This document shows positions 1 through 15,433 of a stretch of DNA of 15,809 nt, piece after piece. Positions within the stretch are counted from its first letter, which is position 1. Each line of letters begins with the position of its first letter. A model generated the notes under the pieces. That model saw only the letters and a program-made list of their open reading frames with translations, ran no database searches and was not told the DNA's origin. A program made the translations under genes and the position numbers. The stretch lies in IMG/VR virus record IMGVR_UViG_2537561934_000016; one strand, 5' to 3'. Source of the DNA: a virus. Its lineage: Duplodnaviria; Heunggongvirae; Uroviricota; Caudoviricetes.

Positions 1-474
1 ATGTACAGTCCGGTACAAATAGCCAATAAATTCATAACGTTGGGAAACCAACATCATAATCCTCTGACCCACATGCAACTGCAGAAGCTTACTTATATTG
101 CCCATGGTTACTATTTAGCATTAACAGGTAAGCCTTTGCTCAATGAATGTGTCTCCGCGTGGAAGTACGGTCCAGTTATTCCTGGAATGTACGATGCTTT
201 CAAAGACTATGGGAATAAACCTGTTACGAATGTAGCAGTAGCTCCTTTTGGTGGCATCGTTACTATGGATCCGCAAGCAGAGAGCATTATCGGGGCTGTT
301 TATAAGTTTTACGGCTCGAAAAATGGAATTGAGTTATCAACTCTAACTCATATGCCAGGTACGCCTTGGTCACAAGCTTATAATGGTATTGGCTCGTCGA
401 TCATCTCAAATGATGCGATCAAGGCTTATTATCATGATTTATTGAATAACCGACAGCAATGTCAGGGCCTCTGA
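1..474 (+). CDS. Panacea-domain (DUF4065; SocA/GepA-like) protein, putative antitoxin, 157 aa
   Basis: ATG at base 1, so the true start could lie upstream of the window. Translation has the DUF4065-like core LQKLTYIAHGYYLAL ... SAWKYGPVIPGMYDAFKDYG, recognised from memory of the family. A 22-nt gap separates it from the next same-strand ORF. Confidence 0.65.
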   Translation: MYSPVQIANKFITLGNQHHNPLTHMQLQKLTYIAHGYYLALTGKPLLNECVSAWKYGPVIPGMYDAFKDYGNKPVTNVAVAPFGGIVTMDPQAESIIGAVYKFYGSKNGIELSTLTHMPGTPWSQAYNGIGSSIISNDAIKAYYHDLLNNRQQCQGL

Positions 475-496
475 AAAAGTAATATTCAGGGATGAC

Positions 497-1045
497 ATGT
501 CTCATAATTCAGATATCTATAAACTGATCGGAGCGGCCGCAGGTGTTGAAAATGGTCGCTCTGAAGCATCCTTAAACTCTACTGACAGTCAAGAGCAGGC
601 TTTTGAATCCGCATTTGAGCCGTCTAATCATGAACGCGATGATGATTCTTCTTCAGAAAATAAGGCTATTCTGGAGGAAGAAGAGTTTGGTTCTAATACT
701 GGTGCATTGCATGAGTTTATGCAGCAGAACAGAATGGACAGTCTTCAAGCTCAGCTTGATATGCTCAAATCACAAGTACGGGATAAGATAGCTGACGCAA
801 CTGGTAAAGAAATAGACAATGAGCTCCGGACAAAAATGGCATCATTCACGGTTTGGTTTATGTCGTGTTGGTGCTTATTCGTTGTCGCAATGTTTACATC
901 GTTTCTTATTGCACATGAAGGAAAGGCTCCAGTTGAAGCGATCGTTGCATTACTAGGTACAAGTACAATTAGTATTGTTGGTTTGGTTGGTTTCGTTGTT
1001 AGTGGATTGTTCAAATCAAGAAAAGATAGTGATAAAGAAAAATAA
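497..1045 (+). CDS. Hypothetical membrane protein, 182 aa; candidate toxin partner of the Panacea protein
   Basis: ATG start with AGGGA 5 nt upstream. Acidic, Ser-rich N-terminus (DDDSSSENKAILEEEEF), a central charged helical segment, and two C-terminal hydrophobic helices (FTVWFMSCWCLFVVAMFTSFLIA and IVALLGTSTISIVGLVGFVVSGLF). No family recognised. Confidence 0.6.
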   Translation: MSHNSDIYKLIGAAAGVENGRSEASLNSTDSQEQAFESAFEPSNHERDDDSSSENKAILEEEEFGSNTGALHEFMQQNRMDSLQAQLDMLKSQVRDKIADATGKEIDNELRTKMASFTVWFMSCWCLFVVAMFTSFLIAHEGKAPVEAIVALLGTSTISIVGLVGFVVSGLFKSRKDSDKEK

Positions 1046-1084
1046 CCCGTACATATACGGGTTATCCATAGTTTTAGTTTAGTT
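1031..1084. terminator. Bidirectional intrinsic terminator between convergent genes
   Basis: Perfect 8-bp stem AACCCGTA/TACGGGTT (1044-1051 and 1056-1063) with a 4-nt loop, T-rich on the plus side (GTTTTAGTTTAGTT) and T-rich on the minus side (reverse complement of GATAAAGAAAAAT). Confidence 0.5.
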
Positions 1085-1348
1085 ATATTTTTTTTCCGTT
1101 CTGACTTTTTCCCACTCAGCTCGCCCTTCTTCCCGTCTTTTGTCAATATATTCCGCAAGATCCTGAATGTTGATGCAGCGTTTTGCTTTTTGTGATGTAC
1201 CGATGCGATATGTAGGTACAGGCAACTTACAAGCGTTTGCTTTTGCTTCTGCTGTGGCTGGACTCATACCAAAGTATTTTTGACTAACTGCTGAGAGTTC
1301 AATGTTTGGGGTATTGAATTCAGCCATCAGTAAAAACAAGGTATTCAT
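1079..1348 (-). CDS. PrtN-family (pyocin-activator-like) small DNA-binding regulator, 89 aa
   Basis: Translation MNTLFLLMAEF ... IQDLAEYIDKRREEG matches the remembered PrtN-family pattern (MNTLFLLMA ... DLAAYID). ATG confirmed as cat at 1346-1348, with GGAG 8 nt upstream on the minus strand. Confidence 0.75.
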   Translation of the reverse strand: MNTLFLLMAEFNTPNIELSAVSQKYFGMSPATAEAKANACKLPVPTYRIGTSQKAKRCINIQDLAEYIDKRREEGRAEWEKVRTEKKYN

Positions 1349-1384
1349 ATCATTTCTCCATCATAACCGGCTGCACCCGGTGAG

Positions 1385-2200
1385 TTACTTATTCATTTCA
1401 ATAATATTATTTTCTATCATTGATTTATTTAAAACCAAAGAAGGAGCAAGATGGTTGTCTATTTTAAACAATGCATAACTTTTAAACTGTTGGTGATATC
1501 CGTAACTAATAAGGATGCTAGAAAAATCTCTTAATTCATCTTCTTTTAAAAAATTAAAATGAAATGGGTTGTCACCATTTATGAACAATGAAACATCTAT
1601 TATGCAGTATTTCTCTCTGTTGTCATTTGCATAGAAAAAAATATAAGACATTCTGTTTGTTAAGACAATGCCATTAAATTTTCTTATGTCTGTAGCTATT
1701 TTGTTTTCCATGTTTGGTGCCACATATTTATTTTCAGAAATACATTTAATTTCATCTCCAGATGTCGTGATTATATAAAAATGAAACTTATCATAAATAT
1801 CTAACTTAACTACGCCATCATTATTATAAAGGCTGCTAAATTTTGGTGGTTCAACTTTTAAAGAATCATAGTTCTTTAAAAGAAGAGGGGAGTCAAATTT
1901 AATAACTTGTAGTATCCCTTTACCTTCAACCTCCATATTGATTGAAGATATAGCAATTGCATTATCTCTTTTATTATTCAGGATTATGGTTGATATATGC
2001 ATGTCATATATTCTACTTGCATTTGCTGAATACGACACTGTCACCTTTTTTGATATTTTTTGCACGCCAAAATATATAGTGAAGGCAGCGGCAAGAATAG
2101 ATAAGAATTTAATGTCAAATAAGGACCATAGCCACATTAGTTGCTCAATTGCTTCAGAGTTAATCATTTGCTTTACCATTATCGCTGTAATACAACACAT
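1385..2200 (-). CDS. Hypothetical protein with N-terminal transmembrane anchor, about 271 aa, AT-rich; start uncertain
   Basis: The 6-frame ORF 1385..2221 opens on TTG. In-frame ATGs lie at 2200, 2179 and 2167 and none has a strong Shine-Dalgarno. A hydrophobic helix (LMWLWSLFDIKFLSILAAAFTIYFGV) follows. No family recognised. Sits between the YfdQ-like and PrtN genes on the same strand. Confidence 0.5.
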   Translation of the reverse strand: MCCITAIMVKQMINSEAIEQLMWLWSLFDIKFLSILAAAFTIYFGVQKISKKVTVSYSANASRIYDMHISTIILNNKRDNAIAISSINMEVEGKGILQVIKFDSPLLLKNYDSLKVEPPKFSSLYNNDGVVKLDIYDKFHFYIITTSGDEIKCISENKYVAPNMENKIATDIRKFNGIVLTNRMSYIFFYANDNREKYCIIDVSLFINGDNPFHFNFLKEDELRDFSSILISYGYHQQFKSYALFKIDNHLAPSLVLNKSMIENNIIEMNK

Positions 2201-2321
2201 GTGTATATATACGCAATGCAATTATTTTGCAAGTGCTTCATTTACTATCAATAGCTTCGTCACGTTATTGTTTAATGGTTCTTTATAGGGGCGGCAATAG
2301 TTAAAATTATCGCTTCCGTAA

Positions 2322-2345
2322 ACGCCCCCGCAGGGGCATTTGCAG
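2322..2345 (-). terminator. Weak candidate intrinsic terminator after the YfdQ-like gene
   Basis: On the minus strand, GCCCC-TGCG-GGGGC hairpin followed by GTTTAC. Short stem and poor U-tract, so low confidence. Confidence 0.25.
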
Positions 2346-2353
2346 TAATGAAA

Positions 2354-3178
2354 TCAGGCGGTGAAAGTACCAATAAAGGTTTCTACTTTGCTGTCTTTGA
2401 ATTTCTCAACAAGCAGATCACGAAATTCGTTAGCCATTTCTTCCTGTACCGCTTCCAGCTGAATAATGCGCAGAACCAGTACAGGACGATCGCCAGTGAT
2501 AATGCTGAGGCGTAATTTAAACGGACGTTCTTTCAGACCTTCAAACGGAACGCATTTAAATTCAAATGCCACTGGCATAATGTCTTTGGTCTTCGCTTCG
2601 ACAGACTCCATCAGGGAGCGTTTGCCGCTGAAGTCATTATCTTCAAAATCAGCGGTCTGGTTCGCTTCAATTGTGATTTTACGGATCGCCGCAGCCGCTT
2701 TGGTTGCCTGAATGGCGTCACCATTAGCATCAAAGCCCACAAGGTAGTCGGCCCAGTCTTCAATCCATTCTGCCAGTGACTTCTGGGAGTTACGCTCGCC
2801 GTTAACAGACAACAGAGCAGAGAACGGTGCTGTCTTTTTCAGTTTGAGAGTGGCGGTGTTATCTGCGTGACCTGGTTCATCAATAGTACCCAGGTTAAGC
2901 ACACTGACGGCACGCATATTATCGGCATCGATAAAGCAGCGGGTGCCTTCATCTGCAAGAACTTTAGAATAACGGGTAAAGTCATCGATGCTGGCAGTGG
3001 AAAGCGCACCACGGAAACGGAAGCGATTTAAATTAAATTTTTCCAGATCATGAATGCGGAAATTCTCAGGCAATGCCACAGCATCGGCACCAATCTTACT
3101 GATAATTTCATTAACACCCTGAGCAGAAATAAGGGCATGGATTTGATTAATTGCGGTTGCGTCTAAGTTCTGAGACAT
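2354..3178 (-). CDS. yfdQ: YfdQ-like prophage protein (DUF2303 family), 274 aa
   Basis: ATG (cat 3176-3178) with GAGGA 7 nt upstream. The 274-aa length and position directly downstream of a 120-aa gene match the yfdP-yfdQ pair of E. coli cryptic prophages as I remember it. The symbol rests on recalled length and synteny, not alignment. Confidence 0.7.
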
Positions 3179-3243
3179 AATAAGTCCTCACTATATAAAA
3201 ATATTCAGTGATGAGATAAATAATCAGTTTATTAAGAACGATA

Positions 3244-3606
3244 TTAACGACCTGCTGCGCGGAGTTTTCCGTCAGGTTCACCGGCAAGAGTCAGTAATTG
3301 TCCCTGGTCCTCCTGCAGAATAGTCAGGCGACCACCGCGATTGACATACATCGGCGTTTCGGTGGTGTCTTCTTCGGAAATTTTCCCGCGGTTAGTCGGG
3401 CGAACATATGAGAGTTTGTGTTTGATTTTCACACGGTTCTCATCAAATGGTTCGATTTCCAGGTTGAGTGAGACCTTACCTTTGGTTTTCGTGTTCATCA
3501 CACCGGAAGCGACTTCACTGAGAACTGCGCCGATTTTGGTTTCAAATACGCCGCCGTCCAGCTCCCCGATAAATGCCTGCACATCAGTACTGCGTTCGCT
3601 AGCCAT
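3244..3606 (-). CDS. yfdP: YfdP-like prophage protein, 120 aa
   Basis: The 6-frame ORF runs to 3837, but its N-terminal 77 residues are Cys/Arg-rich and not protein-like. The ATG at 3604-3606 has a strong GAGGAG 7 nt upstream and gives MASERSTDVQAFIGELDGG..., 120 aa. Symbol assigned from remembered length and adjacency to the YfdQ-like gene. Confidence 0.6.
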   Translation of the reverse strand: MASERSTDVQAFIGELDGGVFETKIGAVLSEVASGVMNTKTKGKVSLNLEIEPFDENRVKIKHKLSYVRPTNRGKISEEDTTETPMYVNRGGRLTILQEDQGQLLTLAGEPDGKLRAAGR

Positions 3607-3654
3607 TTTGCTGCTCCTCATCATATCGACCCTGCAAGGTCGGTTGGTTTCTCC

Positions 3655-3743
3655 ACAAAACAGAGAAGAACACCTGCGGTGGCAGCCGCCCGGATGGATT
3701 GGGTTATGAGCCCGTCGTCCGGTGATGCTCTTCTCTGTTTTGT
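3655..3743. repeat. Long inverted repeat (about 17 of 18 bp) flanking a roughly 53-nt GC-rich spacer
   Basis: ACAAAACAGAGAAGAACA (3655-3672) against TGCTCTTCTCTGTTTTGT (3726-3743); 15 contiguous bp are perfectly complementary. Confidence 0.45.
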
Positions 3744-3789
3744 AAAAAGAGCGGTACCAGCCGGAAGCAAGTGTACAAACTGGTACCGC
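3744..3789 (-). terminator. Candidate intrinsic terminator (minus strand)
   Basis: Perfect 10-bp inverted repeat GCGGTACCAG (3751-3760) / CTGGTACCGC (3780-3789) with a 19-nt loop. On the minus strand the hairpin is followed by TCTTTTTAC. Confidence 0.3.
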
Positions 3790-4238
3790 CAAAGCAGTGG
3801 CTGTTGTGGTGGGGTTGTCACTCAGGCGTATGGTCAACCTGACAATCCGGTGTCCTCAACGGGGAAAGAGTAACCCCGCCATACTTACCGCCGCGCCATT
3901 TCGCGGATTACCACAACGCTGAGAGCACTTAGCCAGTTACGGCACCACACTTTGTCGCGGTTCCATAAATGCCCTCATCGTTGCACCCTGGTCTCTTCCC
4001 AGGCGTCAAACCGGATCGCCACGCTGGTTAGGCGTCTTATCAGCATCATCATTGACTTGCACATTCCGGCTACCTGGTTTGTTTGCCCGAGCAAGGAGTG
4101 GATTGTCCCCTTTAACGTCCCCAGACCGCTAACGACGCATGTGCCATACGCCGTGTTACAACCAAATTTAGTTTAATCTTGCCTGTGTTATGTATCCTAT
4201 AGATACATTATGTATCTTAAGGGTACATTGTCAAGTAT

Positions 4239-4260
4239 AAAAAAACCTGCCGAAGCAGGT
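4239..4260 (-). terminator. Intrinsic terminator downstream of the cI-like repressor gene
   Basis: Minus-strand sequence AACCTGC-TTCG-GCAGGTT followed by TTTTTTT (plus-strand A run 4239-4245, stem 4245-4260). Lies 13 nt past the repressor stop. Confidence 0.5.
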
Positions 4261-4272
4261 TATAAATATTGA

Positions 4273-4947
4273 TTAGGCCTTTATTTTGTATCTTCTTGGT
4301 TTTCCTGAGAAAATCACTGTACCAATTATAGAGCAATTACCGTTGATCTTAATGTAAGGTTCAGGCCAGTTTGGGTTTAATGCTTTGAGGTAACGCTGTG
4401 TTCCATCTTCTATCAACCGCTTGAAGGTGGTTTCGCCTGTATCGTGCATCAATGCAATAACGTCGTCACCGTGGCAGGCAGGGACTTCAGGATCAACAAA
4501 AATCATGTCTCCCGGGCGGTACTCATCAATCATTGAATCACCAATCACCCGCAAGATATAAGTCATTTCGCCACAGGGTACAGGGCAGGGATAAGTTTCT
4601 GCTGTGCTCAAATCAACCTCAGAATAGCCAACTTCTTTCCATGCTCCGGCCTGTACCCATGATATGACAGGGACTAACGTTATTTGTTTGTTAGTGATTG
4701 AAACGTCAGGTTTTTTTGTGATGTTCGTTGTCTGGTGTTCTTGATCAAGCCATCCGACAGGCAGGTCGAAACATTTTTCGATGTGCCGTGCCATGCTGTC
4801 ACCGATATTTTTAGTTGCACCATCTCCCATAAACCTGCTGGTCTGGGTTGGCTCGCGATCAATCATGGTGGCAAAGGAAGAATTCCCGCCAACACCATCT
4901 CTCAGTTTTCTGGCGTTAGACCGCCGGATGTCATGGACTGTTTTCAT
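4273..4947 (-). CDS. cI: Phage CI-type repressor, N-terminal DNA-binding domain plus C-terminal S24 (LexA-like) autopeptidase domain, 224 aa
   Basis: C-terminal domain carries the S24 catalytic motifs: Ser in ILRVIGDSMIDEY and Lys in TTFKRL. The N-terminal region ends in the DLPVGWLD pattern typical of phage repressor DNA-binding domains. Divergent from a cro-like gene. Confidence 0.85.
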   Translation of the reverse strand: MKTVHDIRRSNARKLRDGVGGNSSFATMIDREPTQTSRFMGDGATKNIGDSMARHIEKCFDLPVGWLDQEHQTTNITKKPDVSITNKQITLVPVISWVQAGAWKEVGYSEVDLSTAETYPCPVPCGEMTYILRVIGDSMIDEYRPGDMIFVDPEVPACHGDDVIALMHDTGETTFKRLIEDGTQRYLKALNPNWPEPYIKINGNCSIIGTVIFSGKPRRYKIKA

Positions 4948-4963
4948 AAAGAAATTAAAACCT

Positions 4964-4982
4964 TTGTACCGATAAGGTACAA
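4964..4982. promoter_or_regulatory. Candidate operator in the cI-cro intergenic region
   Basis: 19-bp palindrome TTGTACC-GATAA-GGTACAA with perfect 7-bp arms, 17 bp upstream of the cI start and about 55 bp upstream of cro. A further GGTACA half-site lies near 5026-5031. Confidence 0.4.
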
Positions 4983-5037
4983 GTATCTTGAAGGTTCATC
5001 TCAATCATGTAATATGTATACCGGAGGTACATATTGT

Positions 5038-5247
5038 ATGAAAGCGTATTGGGACTCTTTAACCAAAGAACAGCAGGGTGAGTTGGCCGGAAAAGTTGGC
5101 TCAACACCAGGCTACTTACGGCTGGTTTTCAATGGTTATAAAAAAGCCAGTTTTGTGCTGGCTAAAAAACTTGAGCAATGCACGTCAGGTGCAATTACGA
5201 AATCTGACTTAAGACCGGATATCCGGAAGACTGGGATGTCCTGCTGA
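5038..5247 (+). CDS. cro: Cro/YdaS-like HTH regulator, 69 aa
   Basis: ATG at 5038 with GGAGG 10 nt upstream. Translation MKAYWDSLTKEQQGELAGKVGSTPGYLRLVFNGYKK ... GAITKSDLRPDI resembles prophage Cro/YdaS proteins, which end in a DLRPDIF-type motif. The track's upstream extension to 4735 is antisense to cI and rejected. Confidence 0.7.
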   Translation: MKAYWDSLTKEQQGELAGKVGSTPGYLRLVFNGYKKASFVLAKKLEQCTSGAITKSDLRPDIRKTGMSC

Positions 5248-5933
5248 CGGATGTTTTTCATAAAAGCTGGCCGCTGGCCTCCGATCCTTCTCAACAAATG
5301 CGACTGATGGCAATGGCGGTGGACTCCGGCGGTGAAGACGGGGTCACTGATAATGCCTATAAATTCTGGCGTCGTTGCCGTCGTGATGGCCTTGGTAAAC
5401 GTATTTACCTGTTTAAGGGCGACAGCATCCGGCGCGCAAAACTGATCACCCGTACATTCCCTGATAACACCGGACGAACGGGCCGACGGGCGCAGGCCGC
5501 AGGTGATGTACCGCTCTGGCTTCTTCAGACGGATGCCCTGAAAGACCGGGTGAATAACGCGTTATGGCGTGACTCGCCAGGTCCCGGCTATGTGCATTTC
5601 CCTGACTGGCTGGGGAGCTGGTTTTACGACGAACTGACGTATGAAGAGCGGAGCAGTGACGGGAAATGGAGTAAGCCGGGTCGCGGTGCCAACGAAGCTT
5701 TTGACCTGATGGTGTATGCCGAGGCTCTGGTCATTCTGCATGGATACGAAAAGATCCGCTGGCCGGATGCACCGGAGTGGGCGAGCCGGGAAACCTGGCT
5801 GGAGTGTGTCCCGGACAGTACCGAACCGTCACCCACACCGGAACCGGTATCCACGCCTGTTAAAAAACAAAAACGGAAGAAAACAGTAACTGACGATGTT
5901 AACCCCTGGCTGACTTCCGGAGGATGGTTATGA
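5208..5933 (+). pseudogene. 3' fragment of lambda-type terminase large subunit (gpA-like C-terminal region), no start codon
   Basis: Reading frame opens straight after a TGA at 5205-5207 with no plausible start. Its stop overlaps the next start in an ATGA arrangement, as at the lambda A-W junction. Followed by gpW-like and portal genes. The ATPase N-terminal part and the small subunit are absent. Confidence 0.65.
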
Positions 5934-6142
5934 ATCAGAATGATATTGAAGCCATGATTCAGCGTTATACGGAAGCTGAAATGGCGGTGCTGGACGGAAA
6001 ATCCGTCACTTTTAATGGTCAGCAGATGACCATGGAAAACTTATCTGAGATCCGGCAGGGGCGGCAGGAGTGGGAGCGCCGCCTTGCGGCTCTGATTACA
6101 CGACGACGGGGGCATCCCGGGTACCGGCTGGCGAGGTTCTGA
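5930..6142 (+). CDS. gpW-like head-tail joining protein, 70 aa
   Basis: ATG at 5930 with GGAGG 7 nt upstream. C-terminus RRRGHPGYRLARF resembles the lambda gpW C-terminus (RRRGPAGFYV, recalled). Lies between terminase and portal as in lambda. Confidence 0.65.
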   Translation: MNQNDIEAMIQRYTEAEMAVLDGKSVTFNGQQMTMENLSEIRQGRQEWERRLAALITRRRGHPGYRLARF

Positions 6143-7494
6143 TGGCAATTCTTGATGATGTGATTGGCGTTTTTTCACCAGGATGGAAAGCGGCAAGGCT
6201 GCGTTCCCGAGCGGTGATCCAGGCTTATGAGGCCGTAAAAACGACGCGGACACACAAAGCCCGACGGGAGAACCGAACTGCCGACCAGTTAAGCCAGTAC
6301 GGGGCCGTGTCGTTACGTGAGCAGGCCCGTTACCTTGATAACAACCACGATCTGGTCATTGGTGTATTTGACAAGCTGGAAGAACGGGTGGTGGGGAAAA
6401 ACGGGATTATTGTCGAGCCACATCCGGTATTACGCAATGGGGCCATTGCCCGTGACCTGGCAGCGGAGATACGCACCCGATGGAGTGAATGGTCTGTCAG
6501 TCCGGAAGTCACCGGGCAGTTTACCCGCCCGATGCTGGAACGTCTGATGCTGCGTACCTGGCTGCGCGATGGTGAGGTGTTTGCCCAGATGGTTTCCGGG
6601 CGCATAAACAGCCTGACGCCTTCTGCCGGTGTTCATTTCTGGCTGGAGGCGCTCGAGCCGGACTTTATTCCCATGACCAGTGATGAGAGCAACAGGCTGA
6701 ATCAGGGCGTGTTTGTTGATGACTGGGGGCGTCCCGAAAAATATCTGGTGTATAAAAGCCGTCCTGTATCCGGACGGCAGATGGAAACCAAAGAAGTGGA
6801 TGCAGAGCGAATGCTGCATCTTAAATTTGTTCGCCGTCTGCACCAGATGCGCGGGACGTCTTTATTGTCCGGTGTACTGATCCGCCTCAGTGCCCTGAAA
6901 GAGTATGAAGATTCTGAGCTGACTGCAGCAAGGATCGCCGCTGCTCTGGGGATGTACATCCGGAAAGGCGACGGACAGAGCTATGAACCGGATGGTAATG
7001 GCAGCAAGGAGAATGAACGCGAGCTTACCATTCAGCCAGGCATTATTTACGACGATCTGAAACCCGGCGAAGAAATCGGAATGGTGAAGTCGGATCGCCC
7101 CAATCCTAATCTTGAAACTTTTCGTAATGGTCAGTTGCGTGCAGTGGCGGCTGGTAGTCGTCTGAGTTTTTCCAGTACAGCGCGCAACTATAACGGCACT
7201 TACAGCGCCCAGCGTCAGGAGCTGGTTGAGTCTACTGATGGCTACCTGATCCTGCAGGACTGGTTTATTGGTGCCGTCACCCGCCCGATGTATCGTGCAT
7301 GGCTGAAACAGGCTGTGGCATCCGGTGTTATCAGGTTACCCCGCGATCTTGACCGTTCTTCACTGTATACCGCGGTGTATTCCGGACCAGTGATGCCGTG
7401 GATTGACCCTGTTAAGGAGGCTGAGGCCTGGAAAATCCAGATTCGTGGTGGAGCGGCGACAGAATCAGACTGGGTATCCGGCAGGAAACACTGA
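6142..7494 (+). CDS. Phage portal protein (lambda gpB position), 450 aa, possibly C-terminally truncated
   Basis: ATG at 6142 overlaps the gpW stop (TGATG). Called by synteny (terminase, W, portal) and size; the sequence is not obviously close to lambda gpB from memory. The track start at 6070 is an upstream extension and rejected. Confidence 0.6.
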   Translation: MAILDDVIGVFSPGWKAARLRSRAVIQAYEAVKTTRTHKARRENRTADQLSQYGAVSLREQARYLDNNHDLVIGVFDKLEERVVGKNGIIVEPHPVLRNGAIARDLAAEIRTRWSEWSVSPEVTGQFTRPMLERLMLRTWLRDGEVFAQMVSGRINSLTPSAGVHFWLEALEPDFIPMTSDESNRLNQGVFVDDWGRPEKYLVYKSRPVSGRQMETKEVDAERMLHLKFVRRLHQMRGTSLLSGVLIRLSALKEYEDSELTAARIAAALGMYIRKGDGQSYEPDGNGSKENERELTIQPGIIYDDLKPGEEIGMVKSDRPNPNLETFRNGQLRAVAAGSRLSFSSTARNYNGTYSAQRQELVESTDGYLILQDWFIGAVTRPMYRAWLKQAVASGVIRLPRDLDRSSLYTAVYSGPVMPWIDPVKEAEAWKIQIRGGAATESDWVSGRKH

Positions 7495-7498
7495 ATGA

Positions 7499-10342
7499 AT
7501 GCACCCGTGCGGAGCAGTCGGCCAGCGTGGTGCTCTGGGAACCCATGCGACTGATGCTGCAGGCTCAGCACGTGCAGCCAGCACATCAGCCGGGCAGGCC
7601 GCGACGTCGGCTCAGTCAGCGTCTTCCAGCGCAGGAACGGCATCAACAAAGGCTACTGAAGCATCAAAAAGTGCTGCCGCTGCAGAGTCCTCAAAAAGCG
7701 CGGCGGCTACCAGTGCCGGTGCGGCGAAAACGTCAGAAACGAATGCTGCAGCGTCACAAAAATCTGCAGCCACTTCTGCATCCACCGCGACCACGAAAGC
7801 GTCAGAAGCTGCCACCTCAGCCCGGGATGCGGCGGCCTCAAAAGAGGCAGCGAAATCATCAGAAACGAGCGCAGCCTCGAGCGCCAGTAGTGCAGCCTCT
7901 TCGGCAACGGCGGCAGGAAATTCCGCGAAGGCCGCAAAAACGTCTGAGACGAATGCGGATAACAGCGCACAGGCGGCAGCGGCCTCACAAACTGCATCGG
8001 CAAACTCCGCGACAGCAGCCAAAAAATCAGAAACCAACGCGAAAAATAGCGAGGCAGCAGCAAAGAGCAGCGAAACTAATGCTAAATCCAGTGAAACAAA
8101 CGCGGCGAAATCTGCAGCGGACGCACTTAATTATCGCAACCAGGCACAATCCGTTGTTGGTAACAATATTGGTCTTGGTGAAGTTGCTATGACCTGCACT
8201 GATATCTCTGTTGAGCCATCAGGTTATATTGGATTTATCAGGATTTACATCTCAGCGAAAGGTTATCCATCAGTAGCGTCTAGTGCCGGGGATAATCTTA
8301 TTTCTGGTTATATAGTTAGATCAGAAGTGTCAACAAAAAGATATTCCGGTCTATTTGTTGGTTCAGATACAAAATCATTGTATTCGTACATTTACAGCCA
8401 AAGTTCTGGCCCGCAATGGATACGTCATACCCGCAGAGATGAATTAAGCCGCTTTGGTCAAAATGAATCAACAACTCGTATGTATGGTCCAACTGGTGAT
8501 CGTTTCTTTGAAATCCATACTAACGGGAGTTGGGGGGTTTATGATTCTTCTTCTGGACAATGGTCTCCGTTAGGTTTAGCCCAGGGTGGTACTGGTGGAA
8601 GAACTATCGAGCAAGCACGTGCGAACTTGCGGGTAATGTATGAGCAAAAAGCTGGCCTTGCTAATACTGACCTAAACACCCTTACCGGTGAATATTCTGG
8701 TTTCTATCAACAACCAACGAGCGCTTACGCAACAGAAGAATTAAATTACCCAATCGGTCTGGCGGGCGCTTTAATAGTGCTCCAAACGAGAGCCAACACT
8801 GCTTCTTCCTGCGTTCAGGTGTACCACCCTTATAATAATCCGGGAATTACTTATAGACGAATATATGAAGGAGGTAGCGGTACCTGGTCTGAATGGAAGA
8901 GAGATGTATCAACAGAAAGGGTTGAAGAGGGAAAAGAAACAACTTACGTATATTCTACGTATTCTTCAGGCGCACCACGCTTACAGGTTTCCAAATCTGG
9001 TTTGTGGGGTTGTCATAATGGCACTGGCTGGTTGCCATTAGCTGTTGGGCAAGGAGGTACAGGTGCGACAACAGTAGAAGATGCGCGAAACAACTTAAGT
9101 CTTGGCGAAAGTAGCGCAGTTAAATTTAAAAACCTTACTTTAACCGAAGCGCTCGACACGACATTAGGACTGCTTACAAAAACAGGACGAGACTGGAACG
9201 CTCAGCATACTGATAACGTCGACAAATTTAGACCAATTGCAGGCAGTACAAACGGCCCGGCAGGCTCTATGGTTCTTGGCGGCATTCATGTTCAATTTAG
9301 TAAAAATTATGCTGTGCAGTTCGGAGGCCGCAATTCCGGTTTTTGGGGAAGAACAATTGAAAATGGAACGACGCAGGAATGGAAGAAATTACTAACAGTA
9401 GACGATCTCAATTCATCTACCGCTCTTGCTGTCAGGTCATTAACCACATCTAACCCGATAAAATCTGGCGGAGGGCGGATTGATGTCCTTGGAAGCACGT
9501 CAGACTATAGCAAAATGGATTGCTTTGTACGTGGGTTTGATAGCACCGGTAATTCTCTCGCGTGGGCGTTGGGTTCATCAGTCGGCGTAAGTAAGATGCT
9601 GTCGCTAAAAAATTTCTTTAGCGGAGCTGAGATACTGCTAAATGGTAATGACGGCGCGGTTCAACTCAAAACAGGTGCTGTTAACGGTGCTAAAGCGCAG
9701 GCGCTCACTATCAACAAGGATGAGGTTAACTCAACTGTTGATTTAACTCTTACAAAACAAACAGGGACTGGCAATCGTTTTGTTTTACAGAACTTAGGTA
9801 ATACAGAACTACCATTTGCTGTCAAGGTGTGGGGTTCAGGTGATCGACAAAACGTTTTTGAGGTTGGAACGTCTGCCGCGTATCTGTTTTATGCTCAAAA
9901 AACATCGTCAGGTCAGCTGTTTGATGTAAACGGTGCTATTAACTGTACAACACTGAATCAGTTATCAGACCGCGAGCTGAAAGACAATATTCAGATTATC
10001 AGTGACGCAACCGAAGCTATCCGTAAAATGAACGGGTACACCTACACACTTAAGGAAAACGGACTGCCTTACGCTGGTGTTATTGCACAGGAAGCAATGG
10101 AGGCAATACCGGAAGCGGTAGGCTCATTCACTCATTACGGTAAAGAGTTGCAGGGACCAACGGTTGACGGCAATGAATTACGTGAAGAAACACGTTATCT
10201 GAATGTTGACTACGCCGCCGTGACGGGCTTACTTGTTCAGGTCGCCCGTGAAACAGATGATCGCGTTACCGCGCTGGAAGAAGAAAACGCAGAATTAAAA
10301 CAAAGATTATCTGCAATTGAGGCGGCGCTTGCCTCTAAATAA
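7499..10342 (+). CDS. stf: Side tail fibre (Stf-like) protein, N-terminally truncated, with C-terminal S74 intramolecular-chaperone domain, 947 aa
   Basis: Residues from about 15 onward (ATDAAGSARAASTSAGQAATSAQ ... AAATSAGAAKTSETNAAASQKSAATSAS) match an internal region of lambda Stf as I recall it. The C-terminal part begins with the S74 autoproteolysis signature SDRELKDNIQ (Ser codon at 9965-9967) and ends in a coiled coil. The frame opens 1 nt after a TGA. Confidence 0.8.
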   Translation: MHPCGAVGQRGALGTHATDAAGSARAASTSAGQAATSAQSASSSAGTASTKATEASKSAAAAESSKSAAATSAGAAKTSETNAAASQKSAATSASTATTKASEAATSARDAAASKEAAKSSETSAASSASSAASSATAAGNSAKAAKTSETNADNSAQAAAASQTASANSATAAKKSETNAKNSEAAAKSSETNAKSSETNAAKSAADALNYRNQAQSVVGNNIGLGEVAMTCTDISVEPSGYIGFIRIYISAKGYPSVASSAGDNLISGYIVRSEVSTKRYSGLFVGSDTKSLYSYIYSQSSGPQWIRHTRRDELSRFGQNESTTRMYGPTGDRFFEIHTNGSWGVYDSSSGQWSPLGLAQGGTGGRTIEQARANLRVMYEQKAGLANTDLNTLTGEYSGFYQQPTSAYATEELNYPIGLAGALIVLQTRANTASSCVQVYHPYNNPGITYRRIYEGGSGTWSEWKRDVSTERVEEGKETTYVYSTYSSGAPRLQVSKSGLWGCHNGTGWLPLAVGQGGTGATTVEDARNNLSLGESSAVKFKNLTLTEALDTTLGLLTKTGRDWNAQHTDNVDKFRPIAGSTNGPAGSMVLGGIHVQFSKNYAVQFGGRNSGFWGRTIENGTTQEWKKLLTVDDLNSSTALAVRSLTTSNPIKSGGGRIDVLGSTSDYSKMDCFVRGFDSTGNSLAWALGSSVGVSKMLSLKNFFSGAEILLNGNDGAVQLKTGAVNGAKAQALTINKDEVNSTVDLTLTKQTGTGNRFVLQNLGNTELPFAVKVWGSGDRQNVFEVGTSAAYLFYAQKTSSGQLFDVNGAINCTTLNQLSDRELKDNIQIISDATEAIRKMNGYTYTLKENGLPYAGVIAQEAMEAIPEAVGSFTHYGKELQGPTVDGNELREETRYLNVDYAAVTGLLVQVARETDDRVTALEEENAELKQRLSAIEAALASK
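7540..8110 (+). repeat. Ala/Ser/Thr-rich degenerate tandem repeats inside the tail-fibre gene
   Basis: Repeated units of the form AAKTSETNA / AAKSSETNAKSSETNAAKSA. The GC-rich low-complexity DNA gives spurious long ORFs in other frames. Confidence 0.5.
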
Positions 10343-10348
10343 TATTAA

Positions 10349-10370
10349 GGGGCTGTGCGCCCCGTTTTAT
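10349..10370 (+). terminator. Intrinsic terminator after the tail-fibre gene
   Basis: GGGGC-TGTGC-GCCCC hairpin followed by GTTTTATT, 7 nt after the stop codon. Confidence 0.6.
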
Positions 10371-10384
10371 TGGGTAGGATGAAA

Positions 10385-10672
10385 ATGGGTATAACACCTT
10401 TCCTTCATGCACTTTGTGCTGTGGCTGCGCAGATACTGGTGGGGCTTTTTACCGGAAACTGGGTTTACGGAGCGATAGCCAGTTGTACGTTCTTCATTGC
10501 GGGCGAACACACCCAAGCATAATATCGCTGGATTGAAATGTTCGGGCATGGCAAGCGGATTAACATGCCGTGGTGGGGCGGTTTTGATCCACGCGCATGG
10601 GATGTGGCAAGCCTGATGGATTTTGCTGTGCCGATGGTAGCGTGTCTTCTGATCTGGCTGTTGATCCGTTGA
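10385..10672 (+). pseudogene. Small hydrophobic protein gene interrupted by one in-frame TAA (45 aa, stop, 49 aa)
   Basis: ATG at 10385 with AGGA 5 nt upstream. Translation MGITPFLHALCAVAAQILVGLFTGNWVYGAIASCTFFIAGEHTQA, then TAA at 10520-10522, then in the same frame YRWIEMFGHGKRINMPWWGGFDPRAWDVASLMDFAVPMVACLLIWLLIR. Below the ORF-track size cutoff. Family not recognised. Confidence 0.3.
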
Positions 10673-10680
10673 ACATAAAA

Positions 10681-10729
10681 AGCCGCAGCAACTTGCCATG
10701 GCAGGATACTGCGGCTGGTTTGTGAGTTT
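10681..10729. terminator. Candidate bidirectional terminator between the small membrane ORF and the RT gene
   Basis: 8-bp stem AGCCGCAG (10681-10688) / CTGCGGCT (10709-10716) enclosing a perfect 10-bp palindrome TGCCATGGCA. T-rich on both flanks (GGTTTGTGAGTTT on plus; TTTTATGT on minus). Confidence 0.35.
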
Positions 10730-10850
10730 AAATAGTGTGTTTATTGCGATATATTTTAATGACTTAATGGATTACATATCTATGATATTCCTGAAATATC
10801 CTCTTCAAGCTCTTTTACTGATTTCGCAATTTTAAATTTAAACTTCCTCT

Positions 10851-12149
10851 CTATTTCACTATTGCTAAGTTTTTTTCCTTCTCTTTACCTATCCACATAG
10901 AAACAAGTTCTCGTTTCTGAGATATATGTAGATTGTCAAAGTTAGGTATGTATTTAAAAGTCTCCGCTCTACCTCTGCGGAGTTCATAGAAAGTTTTAAT
11001 CAAAGATTTTGGTTTTATTTCTGATGAAAGGCCGAATCGGCGGATAAGATTATTGATAGTATGATTAACAGAGCGAAGTTGAGCTGTTGAGGTTATTTGT
11101 GAGAAGTACGATACCCATCCCAATCGTTTACCTTCAAACACACATCCCGTAATTCTGAGATTTAGTTTCCACTGACAATATGCAACAGCTCGTTCTTTAT
11201 CACGCTTACTTTTAGCTTGTAGTAGAGCGTGCCTATATGCAGTAAAAATTTTTGCTAAGGATGACTCAAATCTAAGAATGCTCTCATGTTTTATCAATAA
11301 TTCTCGATTTTCTATGTGGTATCCCAAAAAGTTAAAACTTTCATCCAAACTGCCTACTTTGGATTTTGAGTTCTCTTCATTTAATGGATGTGGGTTTAAA
11401 TTTAATGATTGAAGCTTATCAATGATATGAGAAGCTATTTTTGTTGCTTGATATTTTGGTGTTAAAATAAGAATGTCATCAACGTATCGCATGTACCATA
11501 TGTCATGCATTTTATTGATTTCATCATCGAAATTAGATAGTGATATTTCAGCTAAAATGTTTGATATCGCTAATCCCTGAGGTACTCCTCTGGTATTATT
11601 AGGGATACCTTTGCTTCCTGTGGTTCCACTTACAGTAGGCACGATTAATGATGATGTTATTAACTGTCTAATTTCTTTTTTTCTAATTTTATTTTTTATT
11701 GCATTAATTATCAATTTATGTTCAATTGAAGGATAGAAACTTTTAAGATCTATTTTTGCATATTCAGCATATAGACTGTTGTTTAATGCTTCTTTCAATG
11801 AGTCAATTACTGTATGTGGTAGTTTTAATCTGGACTTAGGATATATTTCCGTAAGGCATTCACAGAGAGCTCTAAGAGTAATTCTGTCCCTAGCAGTTGG
11901 TATGGAAATCTGTCTGGGTGTAGAGTTAGCGCCTTTAGATATTAATTTTTCTTTATATGCTGTAAATTTGTAATTGCCAGAATTAACCTTTTCAAAAATG
12001 AAAGTGATCTCATTTTTTATTGTCAAATCAAGTTTTGATGGGCGAATCCGATCTATGCCAATCGCTCCTGATTCTTTGATTTTTTCAGAGTATACTTTTA
12101 GAAGATTTTTTTTCGAGAATGACTTTTTAAAAATTCTGCTTGCAGTCAT
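10851..12149 (-). CDS. Reverse transcriptase (defence-associated Abi/UG/retron-like RT), about 432 aa
   Basis: RT motifs are readable in the translation: IPTARDRITLRAL, GVPQGLAISNILAEISLSNFDDEI, catalytic YMRYVDDILIL (YVDD) and FNFLGYHI, followed by a roughly 130-aa C-terminal extension. The track start at 12155 is TTG; the first ATG is at 12149. The start overlaps the 3' end of the upstream membrane-protein gene by 23 nt. Strongly AT-rich. Confidence 0.85.
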   Translation of the reverse strand: MTASRIFKKSFSKKNLLKVYSEKIKESGAIGIDRIRPSKLDLTIKNEITFIFEKVNSGNYKFTAYKEKLISKGANSTPRQISIPTARDRITLRALCECLTEIYPKSRLKLPHTVIDSLKEALNNSLYAEYAKIDLKSFYPSIEHKLIINAIKNKIRKKEIRQLITSSLIVPTVSGTTGSKGIPNNTRGVPQGLAISNILAEISLSNFDDEINKMHDIWYMRYVDDILILTPKYQATKIASHIIDKLQSLNLNPHPLNEENSKSKVGSLDESFNFLGYHIENRELLIKHESILRFESSLAKIFTAYRHALLQAKSKRDKERAVAYCQWKLNLRITGCVFEGKRLGWVSYFSQITSTAQLRSVNHTINNLIRRFGLSSEIKPKSLIKTFYELRRGRAETFKYIPNFDNLHISQKRELVSMWIGKEKEKNLAIVK

Positions 12150-12678
12150 AGTCAATCCAAAGATATATTAATGGGAGTATATAAAGTGCGGCAGTAATAA
12201 ATATTCGAAGTAATATCCATAAAATAACAATTATTTTTTCTTTTTGTGTGGGGATCCTCGTCTTAAGTCCAACTTGAGTTACCCTTGAAATTTTATCATC
12301 TATGTCACGGTGATTCTCAACCTCATTGAGCAAATTAAAATATTTTTCTTTCTGTTCAAGAGATAACTGTTGACTGGTGGTAATGTCAAAATAGAGTCGC
12401 TGTAGTGCAATATAATTCCTTCTCATGGCTATTGCTCGACCACGAAAATCTAGGTTAGATACGATCAGAGAAATACCCAGTAGAGCCACTGAAAGTATCG
12501 CCGCAACGACATCTGTATTATCTCCTAGAACCTTTGGAAATCGCAACGTTACAATTGAAAGTACCGCACTCAATATAGCATACCAAACGAGGATAAATTG
12601 AGAGTGTTTTTCAAGCCATTCTAGTCGATGGTGCGCTTGGATACGTGCTTTATATGTAAACCAAATATTGTCATGCAT
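12127..12678 (-). CDS. Multi-pass membrane protein (SLATT-like topology by inference), 183 aa, co-operonic with the RT
   Basis: ATG (cat 12676-12678) with AAGGA 6 nt upstream. Hydrophobic helices ILVWYAILSAVLSIVTLRF, VVAAILSVALLGISLIVSN and IIVILWILLRIFITAALYILPLIYLWI. The 3' end overlaps the RT start. Confidence 0.7.
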   Translation of the reverse strand: MHDNIWFTYKARIQAHHRLEWLEKHSQFILVWYAILSAVLSIVTLRFPKVLGDNTDVVAAILSVALLGISLIVSNLDFRGRAIAMRRNYIALQRLYFDITTSQQLSLEQKEKYFNLLNEVENHRDIDDKISRVTQVGLKTRIPTQKEKIIVILWILLRIFITAALYILPLIYLWIDYDCKQNF

Positions 12679-12689
12679 AAAAGATCCTT

Positions 12690-12832
12690 TTTAAAAGCGG
12701 AAGGGGCAGGATATATTGGAACCGTTGAACATCCTGCCCGGCAGGATCAGTGAGCATAAGCTCAACAGTAAAATATTACTGTTCATTATCAGAGCCGCCC
12801 TTGCATGCGCAAGAGGAAAAACCTGCCCCATC
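12690..12832 (-). ncRNA. Structured 5' leader or candidate non-coding RNA upstream of the membrane-protein/RT operon
   Basis: Three copies of an 8-9 bp element in inverted orientation: GGGGCAGGAT (12703-12712), the palindrome ATCCTGCCCGGCAGGAT (12731-12747) and CCTGCCCC (12822-12829). Further local hairpins at CAGTAA-AATA-TTACTG (12765-12780) and around TTGCATGCGCAA (12801-12812). No ORF. Confidence 0.25.
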
Positions 12833-12840
12833 CCTTTGAA

Positions 12841-12869
12841 TTATTACAATTTAATGATCTTAAAGTCAA
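12841..12869 (-). promoter_or_regulatory. Candidate sigma70 promoter for the leader/membrane-protein/RT operon
   Basis: Minus strand reads TTGACT (-35; plus 12864-12869), a 17-nt spacer, then TAATAA (-10; plus 12841-12846) preceded by TG. Sequence match only. Confidence 0.3.
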
Positions 12870-12900
12870 TACAAGTGAATGGTGTCCAGAGATGATGAAC

Positions 12901-13149
12901 TTAATGAACAAACCACTCGTCAGCAGACTCCCAGGTATCTTTCAGAGTCTCCTGAACAAAAGTTTTAGCTGAATCTTTATCAGCGGTGCGCGTAACAGAA
13001 AGGCCATCGTTGCTGGTGGCTTTTACGATCACTTCTACATCGTCATAACGTTTACTGATGCGTCGGGTTAATTCTTCCTTTAACGCATCCACAGCACCGG
13101 TTGGCATTTTAGTCATTTTTTCTTTGGCTATGCAGATTTCAATACGCAT
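12901..13149 (-). CDS. DinI-family (DNA-damage-inducible protein I-like) protein, 82 aa
   Basis: Translation [31 protein letters not shown] ... [11 protein letters not shown] matches the remembered DinI pattern (MRIEVTIAK ... ETWESADDWFV). AGGGGA 6 nt upstream of the ATG. Two LexA boxes lie directly upstream. Confidence 0.8.
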
Positions 13150-13161
13150 AAAAGTCCCCTA

Positions 13162-13181
13162 CACTGTATTTGTATACAGTA
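13162..13181. promoter_or_regulatory. LexA (SOS) box 1
   Basis: CACTGTATTTGTATACAGTA fits the CTGT-N8-ACAG consensus (TACTGTATATATATACAGTA) with an AT-rich core, 13-32 nt upstream of the dinI-like start. Confidence 0.6.
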
Positions 13182-13189
13182 TTATTTTT

Positions 13190-13209
13190 AACTGTATGGA
13201 TAAACAGTG
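13190..13209. promoter_or_regulatory. LexA (SOS) box 2
   Basis: AACTGTATGGATAAACAGTG fits CTGT-N8-ACAG. It lies 28 bp from box 1 and abuts the integrase stop codon. Confidence 0.5.
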
Positions 13210-14307
13210 TCAAGAGGTCTTATTTCTGCTCCTTTGGAGTTCTTCAAAACGATTATGTAAAGATTTCGGATACAGTTCGGTATATACCTGCCATAGCACG
13301 TTTAATGAACGATGCCCTGTAACCTGAGCGACTTCCTCAATACTAAAACCAGCCTCAAATAAGCGACTTGCCCCTTCTCTACGCAAATCATGGTATCTCA
13401 GATCTTTAATACCTAATTTGCTTCTTACCCTCTGAAATCCTGCGGTAACAGAAGTGCTGTTATATGGAAAAATGAATTCTGATTTTTTGGGTTGTCGCTG
13501 GACGATATCCCAGGCTTCCCCAAGCAAGGCAACTTTCATATGGTTGCCTTCCTTTTTACGTGGATCTTTCCTGTCTCTTACTAGTATAGATTTTTGTTCC
13601 TGGTCGAGATCTTCCCATCGTAACCGGCATACTTCTCCGATTCGCATACAGGACCACACAGAAAATTTGAGGATATCAACGAACGGAATTTTTGAGCATT
13701 TATGAGTAGATCGTTGTTGAAGGCCTTCAATGAGCATGTTCAGTTCATCAGATGCTGGTCTACGATTACGACGGTTTGATTTACCAATCAAACCGAGTTT
13801 AAGTAGATATGGACGAGCGCTTTTCGCCGGGTTTGATGTGTAATTGATTCCGTATACAGGTTTTGCCGCATCCAGAACACTGCCAAGATAACTAACATCG
13901 TGGCTGACTGTTGCTGGGCCTGCACCAGCGTTGTTTCTTAGCCTGCAATGTTCAATTACGTCATTTTCTGTCAGTTCAGATAGTTTGATCGCGGAGATGT
14001 CACTATCCATAAGCAGTTCCAGCACATATCTTTTAGTACGGCCTGCTTTACCTCCGGCATTTGGGTCATTTAAATATTTGTGTAGTAAGTCACGGACTGT
14101 AAGTCCGTCAACAGCATTTGATGATGGAATGCCATATAGATCTAATTCCATCACTTTCTGTGCGCCCCATGTTTTGGCATGAGCATGTTTAGGGAATGTT
14201 TTGCTTTCCCTGTAAGTGATAACACCTTTTTCTTTGATAATCACATTACAGCGATAGCGTGGTGTGCCATCGGATTTTAGTCGTTTCTCTATGTTATAGT
14301 ACGCCAT
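13210..14307 (-). CDS. int: Tyrosine recombinase / phage integrase (dusA-associated type by context), 365 aa
   Basis: Integrase-sized protein whose C-terminal region HDLRREGASRLFEAGFSIEEVAQVTGHRSLNVLWQVYTELY carries the His/Arg/Tyr pattern of tyrosine recombinases. Encoded divergently from dusA, 88 bp from its start. Confidence 0.9.
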   Translation of the reverse strand: MAYYNIEKRLKSDGTPRYRCNVIIKEKGVITYRESKTFPKHAHAKTWGAQKVMELDLYGIPSSNAVDGLTVRDLLHKYLNDPNAGGKAGRTKRYVLELLMDSDISAIKLSELTENDVIEHCRLRNNAGAGPATVSHDVSYLGSVLDAAKPVYGINYTSNPAKSARPYLLKLGLIGKSNRRNRRPASDELNMLIEGLQQRSTHKCSKIPFVDILKFSVWSCMRIGEVCRLRWEDLDQEQKSILVRDRKDPRKKEGNHMKVALLGEAWDIVQRQPKKSEFIFPYNSTSVTAGFQRVRSKLGIKDLRYHDLRREGASRLFEAGFSIEEVAQVTGHRSLNVLWQVYTELYPKSLHNRFEELQRSRNKTS

Positions 14308-14326
14308 TACACGACCTCGTTATTTC

Positions 14327-14362
14327 GGGTTCCCATAAAGCGTGGGAACCTGTGCGGGAACC
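14327..14362. promoter_or_regulatory. GGGAACC repeat cluster in the int-dusA intergenic region (candidate integrase or regulator binding sites)
   Basis: GGGTTCCC (14327-14334, inverted) plus two direct copies of GGGAACC (14344-14350 and 14356-14362) spaced 12 bp apart. Confidence 0.3.
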
Positions 14363-14395
14363 TAACGCGAGAAAAATAGCCTGAAATGTTCAAAA

Positions 14396-15433
14396 ATGCA
14401 CGATAATCCTGAAACACAGAAAACTAATCAAACCAGCGTGATGCCTGAAAAAACTGGCGCTTACTGGAGTTCTCGGTTTAGCATTGCTCCTATGCTCGAC
14501 TGGACGGACAGACATTGCCGCTATTTCTTGCGTCTGCTTTCCCGCAATACGTTGCTGTATACCGAAATGGTGACCACAGGGGCGATTATTCACGGTAAAG
14601 GTGATTACCTGGCGTACAGTGAAGAAGAACATCCGGTAGCGTTGCAACTCGGCGGTAGCGATCCGGCGGCGCTGGCACAGTGTGCGAAGCTGGCAGAAGC
14701 GCGTGGATATGATGAGATCAACCTGAATGTCGGCTGCCCGTCTGACCGGGTGCAGAACGGCATGTTTGGTGCGTGTCTGATGGGTAATGCGCAGCTGGTT
14801 GCCGACTGCGTGAAAGCGATGCGCGATGTGGTGTCGATTCCAGTGACGGTGAAAACGCGTATTGGCATCGATGACCAGGACAGCTATGAATTTCTCTGCG
14901 ATTTCATCAACACCGTTTCCGGCAAAGGCGAGTGTGAGATGTTTATCATCCACGCACGTAAAGCCTGGCTTTCGGGGTTAAGCCCGAAAGAAAACCGTGA
15001 AATCCCGCCGCTCGATTATCCGCGTGTGTATCAACTGAAGCGTGACTTTCCGCATCTGACAATGTCGATTAACGGTGGTATCAAGTCGCTGGAAGAGGCC
15101 AAAGCACACCTGCAACATATGGATGGCGTGATGGTCGGGCGCGAGGCGTATCAGAATCCGGGTATTCTGGCGGCGGTAGACCGGGAGATCTTTGGTTCCT
15201 CGGATACCGATGCCGATCCAGTGGCGGTAGTGCGCGCCATGTATCCGTACATTGAGCGTGAACTCAGCCAGGGGACGTATCTCGGCCATATTACCCGGCA
15301 TATGTTGGGCTTGTTCCAGGGTATTCCTGGCGCGCGGCAGTGGCGGCGTTATTTAAGTGAAAATGCCCATAAAGCGGGTGCAGACATTAATGTGCTGGAA
15401 CACGCGCTCAAACTGGTGGCGGATAAGCGTTAA
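14396..15433 (+). CDS. dusA: tRNA-dihydrouridine(20/20a) synthase DusA, 345 aa
   Basis: Translation carries the Dus family core ([19 protein letters not shown] ... [13 protein letters not shown] ... catalytic region) and ends ... LKLVADKR, as in E. coli DusA. An alternative in-frame start is at 14441 (MPEKTG). The 5' end may be element-supplied. Confidence 0.9.

Follow-up and report, generated by a model that had tools for sequence, protein, structure and literature searches.

Among the lambdoid prophages of Escherichia coli, grounded or cryptic ones such as e14, Rac, DLP12 and Qin have been reviewed (PMC6379469): internal deletions took their replication, lysis and morphogenesis genes, and the integrase, the repressor/Cro switch and the accessory genes were kept. 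A second group of relatives is defined by its integration site. Farrugia et al. (2015, PMC4482086) described the family of dusA-specific integrases together with the prophages and genomic islands that carry them; in such elements, a tyrosine integrase gene lies immediately upstream of dusA and a duplicate of the dusA 5' end marks the far end. For the packaging genes, phage lambda is the reference. The large terminase of the nearest unscarred relative of the present locus resembles lambda gpA, being a 700-aa protein with a PF05876 ATPase domain and a PF20454 nuclease domain; as in lambda, its gene has the small-subunit gene upstream and, downstream, a gpW-like gene and a lambda-family portal gene.

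The window (the whole stretch of DNA analysed, 15,809 nt) is a region of the E. coli chromosome with a lambdoid prophage remnant in the 5' end of dusA. Along its whole length, the sole difference from NZ_CM151382.1 is one T that is missing from the window near position 10870. Similar to the described dusA elements, the remnant has its integrase gene next to dusA, and the annotation of the matching chromosomes places a dusA 5' fragment some 300 bp before the window, its end lying 305 nt ahead of the window start:

13210-14307, minus strand: integrase gene, adjoining dusA
14396-15433: dusA, next to the integrase gene

An integrase gene and an attachment-site duplication therefore surround phage genes in a bacterial chromosome, and genes for particle production have been lost relative to the near-complete prophage of strain 214-4. 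This loss of the middle with retention of the ends matches both the grounded prophages (PMC6379469) and the dusA-integrating elements (PMC4482086). The immunity genes bear the e14 names ymfK, ymfT and ymfL in RefSeq; unlike e14, which lies in icd, the element lies in dusA. It also differs from the cryptic lambdoid prophages in its cargo, a UG17-class reverse transcriptase with a SLATT partner and a Panacea-domain gene, and in carrying a rare allele in which cro runs directly into the large terminase gene (2 of 5426 complete genomes). This cro-terminase deletion is not described in PMC4482086, and it is not specific to dusA, as the identical junction is found in a prophage at the thrW/proA site.

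With a probability of about 0.88, the cro-terminase junction marks the internal loss of 7,631 bp from a lambdoid prophage that sat in the 5' end of dusA and was already defective. The scar is a case of ordinary, textbook microhomology-associated prophage decay and has no function of its own. It is not new as a kind of feature, and the terminase remnant is already a pseudogene in RefSeq. Of little consequence by itself, it shows to the base how lambdoid prophages are pared down: the lytic and morphogenetic middle is deleted repeatedly and independently, while the integrase with the defence cargo and the immunity region persist at the ends.

The cro-terminase junction

Three features overlap at the junction:

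5038..5247, plus strand: chimeric Cro, YdaS/YmfT-type HTH protein (translation; RefSeq WP_001371722.1)
5220..5223: deletion junction with the 4-bp microhomology TATC, which is present at both parental breakpoints and kept in one copy
5220..5933, plus strand: 3' remnant of the large terminase gene, codons 464-700 of 700 (Pfam, tblastn, PGAP pseudogene)

The breakpoints were mapped against E. coli strain 035152 (NZ_CP101705.1, L003), in which this prophage also occupies the dusA site but encodes the native 66-aa Cro (YmfT) and a complete 700-aa terminase and has no cro-terminase scar. In the shared ~15.1 kb, 035152 and the window show zero substitutions and one 1-nt indel (window ~10870). Window 1-5223 equals L003rc 8271-13493 at 100% identity, and window 5220-15099 equals L003rc 21121-31001 at 99.99%, the indel being the single difference. 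The two blocks are collinear and overlap by TATC, and between them 035152 has 7,631 extra bp. At the breakpoint, the left parent reads CCGGATATC followed by TATCCGAAAGATTAA, and the right parent CCGGCCAGC followed by TATCCGGAAGACTGG. TATC stands at both breakpoints in 035152 and also in the prophage of 214-4 (L015). The junction is seamless: the two flanks, with their 4-nt overlap, account for all of it, and it contains no filler and no IS DNA. When junctions were simulated at random in this interval, 1.7% had 4 bp or more of microhomology (P = 0.017). A preliminary description had proposed a deletion scar here and suggested looking for microhomology; the alignment to unscarred relatives bears out the scar, and TATC supplies the microhomology.

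The terminase frame is not that of cro. It is closed by a TGA at 5205-5207, is open from 5208 and stops at 5931-5933; the codons at 5208-5219 are cro DNA read in the terminase frame, and true terminase homology begins at 5220. From there the remnant matches the 700-aa terminase of 035152 at 100% identity over residues 464-700 (tblastn, 237 aa), the C-terminal 34% (237/700 codons). Pfam GpA_nuclease (PF20454) matches it with E=3e-46 over profile positions 119-294 of 294; only the C-terminal part of the gpA nuclease domain is kept, and the first 118 profile positions are gone. The PF05876 ATPase domain, which covers residues 41-304 of the full-length relative and stands beside PF20454 there, was not found in the translation of 5208-5930. 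A tblastn search of terminase residues 1-463 against the whole window gave a best E of 0.97, with no N-terminal terminase elsewhere, and no homologue of the DUF1441 small terminase was found anywhere in the window. Unlike lambda gpA, the window thus lacks the ATPase domain, the proximal nuclease region and a start codon for the remnant, in whose frame ATG first occurs at 5298, giving a 211-aa ORF. Intact terminase genes, present by the thousands in E. coli genomes, match the window from exactly 5220, and PGAP annotates a pseudogene from the same base ([quoted passage not shown]). The frame without a start codon that had been seen to open at 5208 is accordingly real, its assignment to terminase (5208..5933) stands, and alignment reveals no complete terminase gene within the window. 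The earlier wording, in which cro runs into the middle of the gene and its 3' half survives, is right as to the 3' part; only the last third is kept. The remnant decays as a pseudogene, since it bears a nonsense mutation in the related prophage L014 (G>T at window-equivalent 5631) and nearby downstream DNA has been lost in other lineages.

On the other side of the junction, the Cro ORF runs from the ATG at 5038 to a TGA at 5245-5247, the end given in the preliminary description, and encodes 69 aa. Residues 1-62 are native and identical to WP_000649477.1, the native 66-aa form (YmfT). The native last four residues, YPKD, have been exchanged for RKTGMSC, the product of out-of-frame terminase DNA (a frameshifted tail of 7-8 residues). 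Pfam YdaS_toxin matches the chimeric protein with E=8e-5 at 22.8 bits, under the curated cut-off of 30, and PGAP labels the ORF as an HTH protein. The exact 69-aa Cro occurs on 72 contigs, versus at least 1000 for the native form. Neither the chimeric Cro nor the terminase remnant had a match in PADLOC. For annotation, the mapping is of value in that both are deletion products and not genes in their own right.

The DNA that is missing can be read from the two comparators. From the 035152-type interval the window has lost the last four cro codons, ymfL, a DUF4222 gene and ash; genes for a 272-aa HTH early protein, PerC, an N6-adenine methyltransferase (Dam-like) and a small LexA-family regulator; a RusA'/lysozyme' fusion, which is an older scar, a spanin-like lysis gene and a small ORF; and a 680-bp gap, the DUF1441 small-terminase gene and terminase codons 1-463, including the whole ATPase domain. 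The cos site is presumed to have been lost within the 680-bp gap, judging from its expected place upstream of the small terminase gene, as in lambda. The second comparator, the near-complete prophage of strain 214-4, lies at the prfC site; in it, 12,699 bp separate these two breakpoint sequences. Its interval comprises the early region, Q, holin, lysozyme, spanin, the small terminase and the terminase N-terminus; what it holds beyond the interval of 035152 is KilA-N, DUF968, Q, a second methylase, holin and lysozyme. The RefSeq accessions of the repressor, Cro and gpW-like proteins of 214-4 are stated as the same as in the window. Relative to 214-4, the window lacks this entire set from the early region beyond cro to the terminase N-terminus, and also the portal C-terminus, the capsid and the tail shaft and tip. 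Both intervals agree with the earlier claim that the genes between cro and the 3' part of the terminase gene, the small terminase among them, are missing.

In the proposed mechanism, the 7,631 bp from cro codon 63 to large terminase codon 463 would have been removed by RecA-independent short-homology (illegitimate) recombination or by replication slippage; the seamless join and the single retained copy of the 4-bp repeat point to these processes. An imperfect direct repeat at the breakpoints (CCGGATATCTATCCGAAAGA versus CCGGCCAGCTATCCGGAAGA, 16/20 nt) may have helped bring the ends together; it lies one TATC unit out of register with the breakpoint that was used. The outcome is a terminase pseudogene remnant directly behind PR-cro, with the repressor, the operators, a near-complete Cro and the cargo at both ends of the element as survivors. 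Two features fit this reading less well: the homology at the junction is a mere 4 bp long, and the best local match (a perfect TATCCG within the 16/20 repeat) lies in the other register.

Short-homology deletions are known in E. coli. Albertini et al. reportedly found in 1982 that short, partly imperfect direct repeats are deletion hot spots in lacI, and Glickman and Ripley are said to have addressed in 1984 the role of palindromes in such deletions. The scar is like the lacI deletions in being seamless, in keeping one repeat copy and in having its breakpoints within a longer imperfect repeat, and it is like other E. coli short-homology deletions in having a small quasi-palindrome at one end. 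It differs from the lacI deletions in that the perfect homology is 4 bp and not in the best register, and in that the interval spans 7.6 kb.

Distribution and origin of the junction

The exact junction is rare. It occurs in 2 of 5426 complete genomes, and the cI-cro-ymfL module is present in 1308 of these. Besides the two complete chromosomes, at least ten further independent assemblies carry the junction. A search of metagenome contigs for the exact 38-nt junction gave 0 matches, which says nothing on prevalence. The identical junction (window 5200-5245, exact) is found in at least three haplotype backgrounds and at two integration sites. The first background is the window type at dusA. The second is the L005 type (L005, L007, L011), a dusA prophage diverged by ~1% in which capsid, J, Lom and tail-fibre genes are present. 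The third is L014, a prophage at the thrW/proA site, also ~1% diverged. In the L014 assembly (GCA_000358755.2, contig APWZ01000027.1, 10001-10688), the junction lies beside proA, with a different integrase and left arm. Given one junction in several backgrounds and an unscarred sister that matches the window without a substitution, two histories are left: the scar had more than one origin, or homologous recombination passed it between prophages. The scar could serve as a lineage marker, and its presence in several backgrounds offers a possible small case study of recombination among resident prophages.

A single origin elsewhere is possible, if rather unlikely, as the source of the scar in the window: homologous recombination, crossing over within the conserved cI-cro region on one side and the terminase gene on the other, would have carried it to the window lineage and to the other backgrounds. 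Since the exact junction is found in two ~1% diverged backgrounds, the window lineage may have received it by recombination with a scarred allele, and the three backgrounds at two sites and the plentiful partners (the module in 1308/5426 complete genomes) are consistent with this. The left-flank SNPs of L014 (5079C, 5021T, 4950C) are standing variants in intact alleles, which again favours import; however, the nearest of them is ~141 bp from the junction, and the left crossover of L014 would need to fall no more than 140 bp from it. Identity between the L005 type and the window is confined to a core, 4391-5509, with divergence outside it, but intact alleles with an L005-type left flank have the identical core (99.9%, 1475 nt). 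The SNP-free core was therefore rejected as a recombination tract and is not evidence of conversion. The absence of substitutions from 035152 in ~15 kb equally fits a very recent deletion in situ, which is the reading preferred here.

It is improbable that the locus reflects a recurrent, sequence-directed deletion hot spot or a "grounding" allele spread by recombination among resident lambdoid prophages. If such an allele existed, it would spread by removing host-killing functions while keeping immunity and the defence cargo. The first of these two ideas in its specific form, that the same deletion arose independently several times at a hot spot made of the 16/20 repeat, the tandem TATC and a quasi-palindrome at the cro end, is still harder to credit. 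The occurrence of one junction in three backgrounds, the unscarred sister without substitutions and the imperfect repeat at the breakpoints all speak for it. Against it, the actual junction is out of register with the best repeat, the left-breakpoint hairpin is weak, and only 2 of ~1308 module-bearing complete genomes carry the scar. A multi-register hot spot is unsupported, because the junction in the alternative register (perfect TATCCG, 16/20) was not found in the 5426 complete genomes; that search matched only the two known scarred genomes, each with a 4-nt gap. Hairpin stalling at the left breakpoint was also considered and is not meaningful (-3.5 kcal/mol, z=-1.8; 11/200 shuffles fold as well). 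The 12-bp palindrome made by the junction, CCGGATATCCGG, folds no better than shuffles.

An adaptive role of the remnant is very improbable. It would be a kept, expressed 211-aa gene starting at ATG 5298, transcribed from PR upon SOS induction and interfering with packaging by related superinfecting phages. The remnant does lie directly downstream of PR-cro, a scan of the plus strand from 5247 to 5933 found weak terminator-like sites only, and gene callers call the 211-aa ORF in several assemblies. Yet the product would have neither the first 118 positions of the nuclease profile nor any of the ATPase domain, and no Shine-Dalgarno-like sequence is visible before 5298. The premature stop in L014, the further deletions just downstream in L009 and L005, the empty PADLOC search and the PGAP pseudogene call likewise argue against it. 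An assembly artefact, in which repeat collapse joined two prophage regions, has a negligible chance: lambdoid modules are indeed repeated within E. coli genomes (median 2, up to 13 places per genome), but the same junction stands in the two complete chromosomes and the other independent assemblies.

Retained ends and other deletions

The immunity region left of the junction looks intact:

4211-4227: third operator-like site, TGTAY-N7-GTACA, downstream of the repressor gene (pattern search)
4273..4947, minus strand: intact cI-like repressor gene, YmfK type, LexA/S24 peptidase family (Peptidase_S24, WP_000859462.1)
4965..5031: divergent promoter/operator region with operator-like TGTAY-N7-GTACA at 4965-4981 and 5015-5031

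The repressor has 224 aa (Pfam Peptidase_S24, E=1.5e-26) and bears the same accession in the unscarred 035152 and in 214-4. The divergent control region between it and cro spans 90 nt. The pattern search found three distinct operator-like sites versus 0.04 expected, and 0 of 200 shuffles reached this count; it returned four matches for the three sites, as the palindromic 4965-4981 matches on both strands. From their sequence, these sites are probably operators. A strong sigma-70-like promoter (TTGACA-16-CATAAT, 11/12) on the minus strand at 4207-4234 overlaps the site at 4211-4227. Together they look like a PL/OL equivalent driving the leftward genes yfdP-yfdQ.

The cargo is retained as well. 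PADLOC identified the UG17-class reverse transcriptase and its SLATT partner (E=1e-158 and 1e-56), and the Panacea-domain gene is present. The preliminary description had stated that the element keeps its immunity switch and its cargo; the S24 repressor, the HTH region of Cro and the three operator-like sites agree with the former, and these genes with the latter. At the 3' end of the reverse transcriptase gene (within 10851-12155, minus strand), the T missing near 10870 shifts the frame, and the window has a 434-aa ORF where relatives have 456 aa. The same T is missing relative to L001, L006 and L013 (L013 also differs by a SNP at 13208). Either the defence gene has a genuine frameshift or the missing T is a sequencing error.

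NZ_CM151387.1 (L001), one of the two scar-bearing complete genomes, has an ISKox3 copy (ISL3 family, 18045-19265) between dinI and the integrase gene that the window lacks. IS-mediated deletion at the cro-terminase junction was rejected, as no IS or foreign DNA lies there and this ISKox3 is elsewhere.

To the right of the terminase remnant, two further genes follow:

5930..6142, plus strand: intact gpW-like DUF6148 gene, normally next after the terminase gene (WP_001072975.1)
6142..7476, plus strand: portal gene, truncated at its 3' end (Phage_portal_2, E=4.6e-82; PGAP "missing C-terminus")

The gpW-like protein has the same accession in 035152 and 214-4. The portal gene is cut at 7476 (CTGGGTA) by a second scar (window 7470-7541 and 7499-10342), beyond which come 72 nt from the 5' end of a tail-L gene and, next, a tail-fibre/S74-peptidase ORF. 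Strain 035152, which has no cro-terminase scar, shares the portal scar; the L005-type relatives, which carry the cro-terminase scar, lack it. Besides the same portal cut, 035152 has lost the head and tail-shaft genes and contains the RusA'/lysozyme' fusion (L003 13184-13558). Because this nearest unscarred relative was already unable to make particles, the cro-terminase scar is a late step of decay and not the cause of the packaging defect. The earlier statement that the element cannot package DNA holds in that the packaging functions are gone, but their loss at this junction did not create the defect.

Other members of the dusA prophage family show that middle deletions are independent of each other and that both ends persist. 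Strain 410, L005 and L009 have yet other middle deletions, and the dusA prophages of NT1F34 and 035152, each with its own deletions, keep int, DinI, SLATT-RT and the end from Panacea to cI/cro. In NT1F34 (L016, NZ_CP075487.1, 22793-24473), an early HTH gene runs straight into a tail-fibre fragment. In relatives, a left endpoint at the end of the gpW-like gene (window 6121-6123, CCCGGGTA before CCGG) serves two deletions, which run from 6123 to 7012 in the L005 type and to 10392 in L009. Both have only ~2 bp of perfect microhomology, beside a longer imperfect one (GGGTA), and this endpoint is a candidate local hot spot for deletions.
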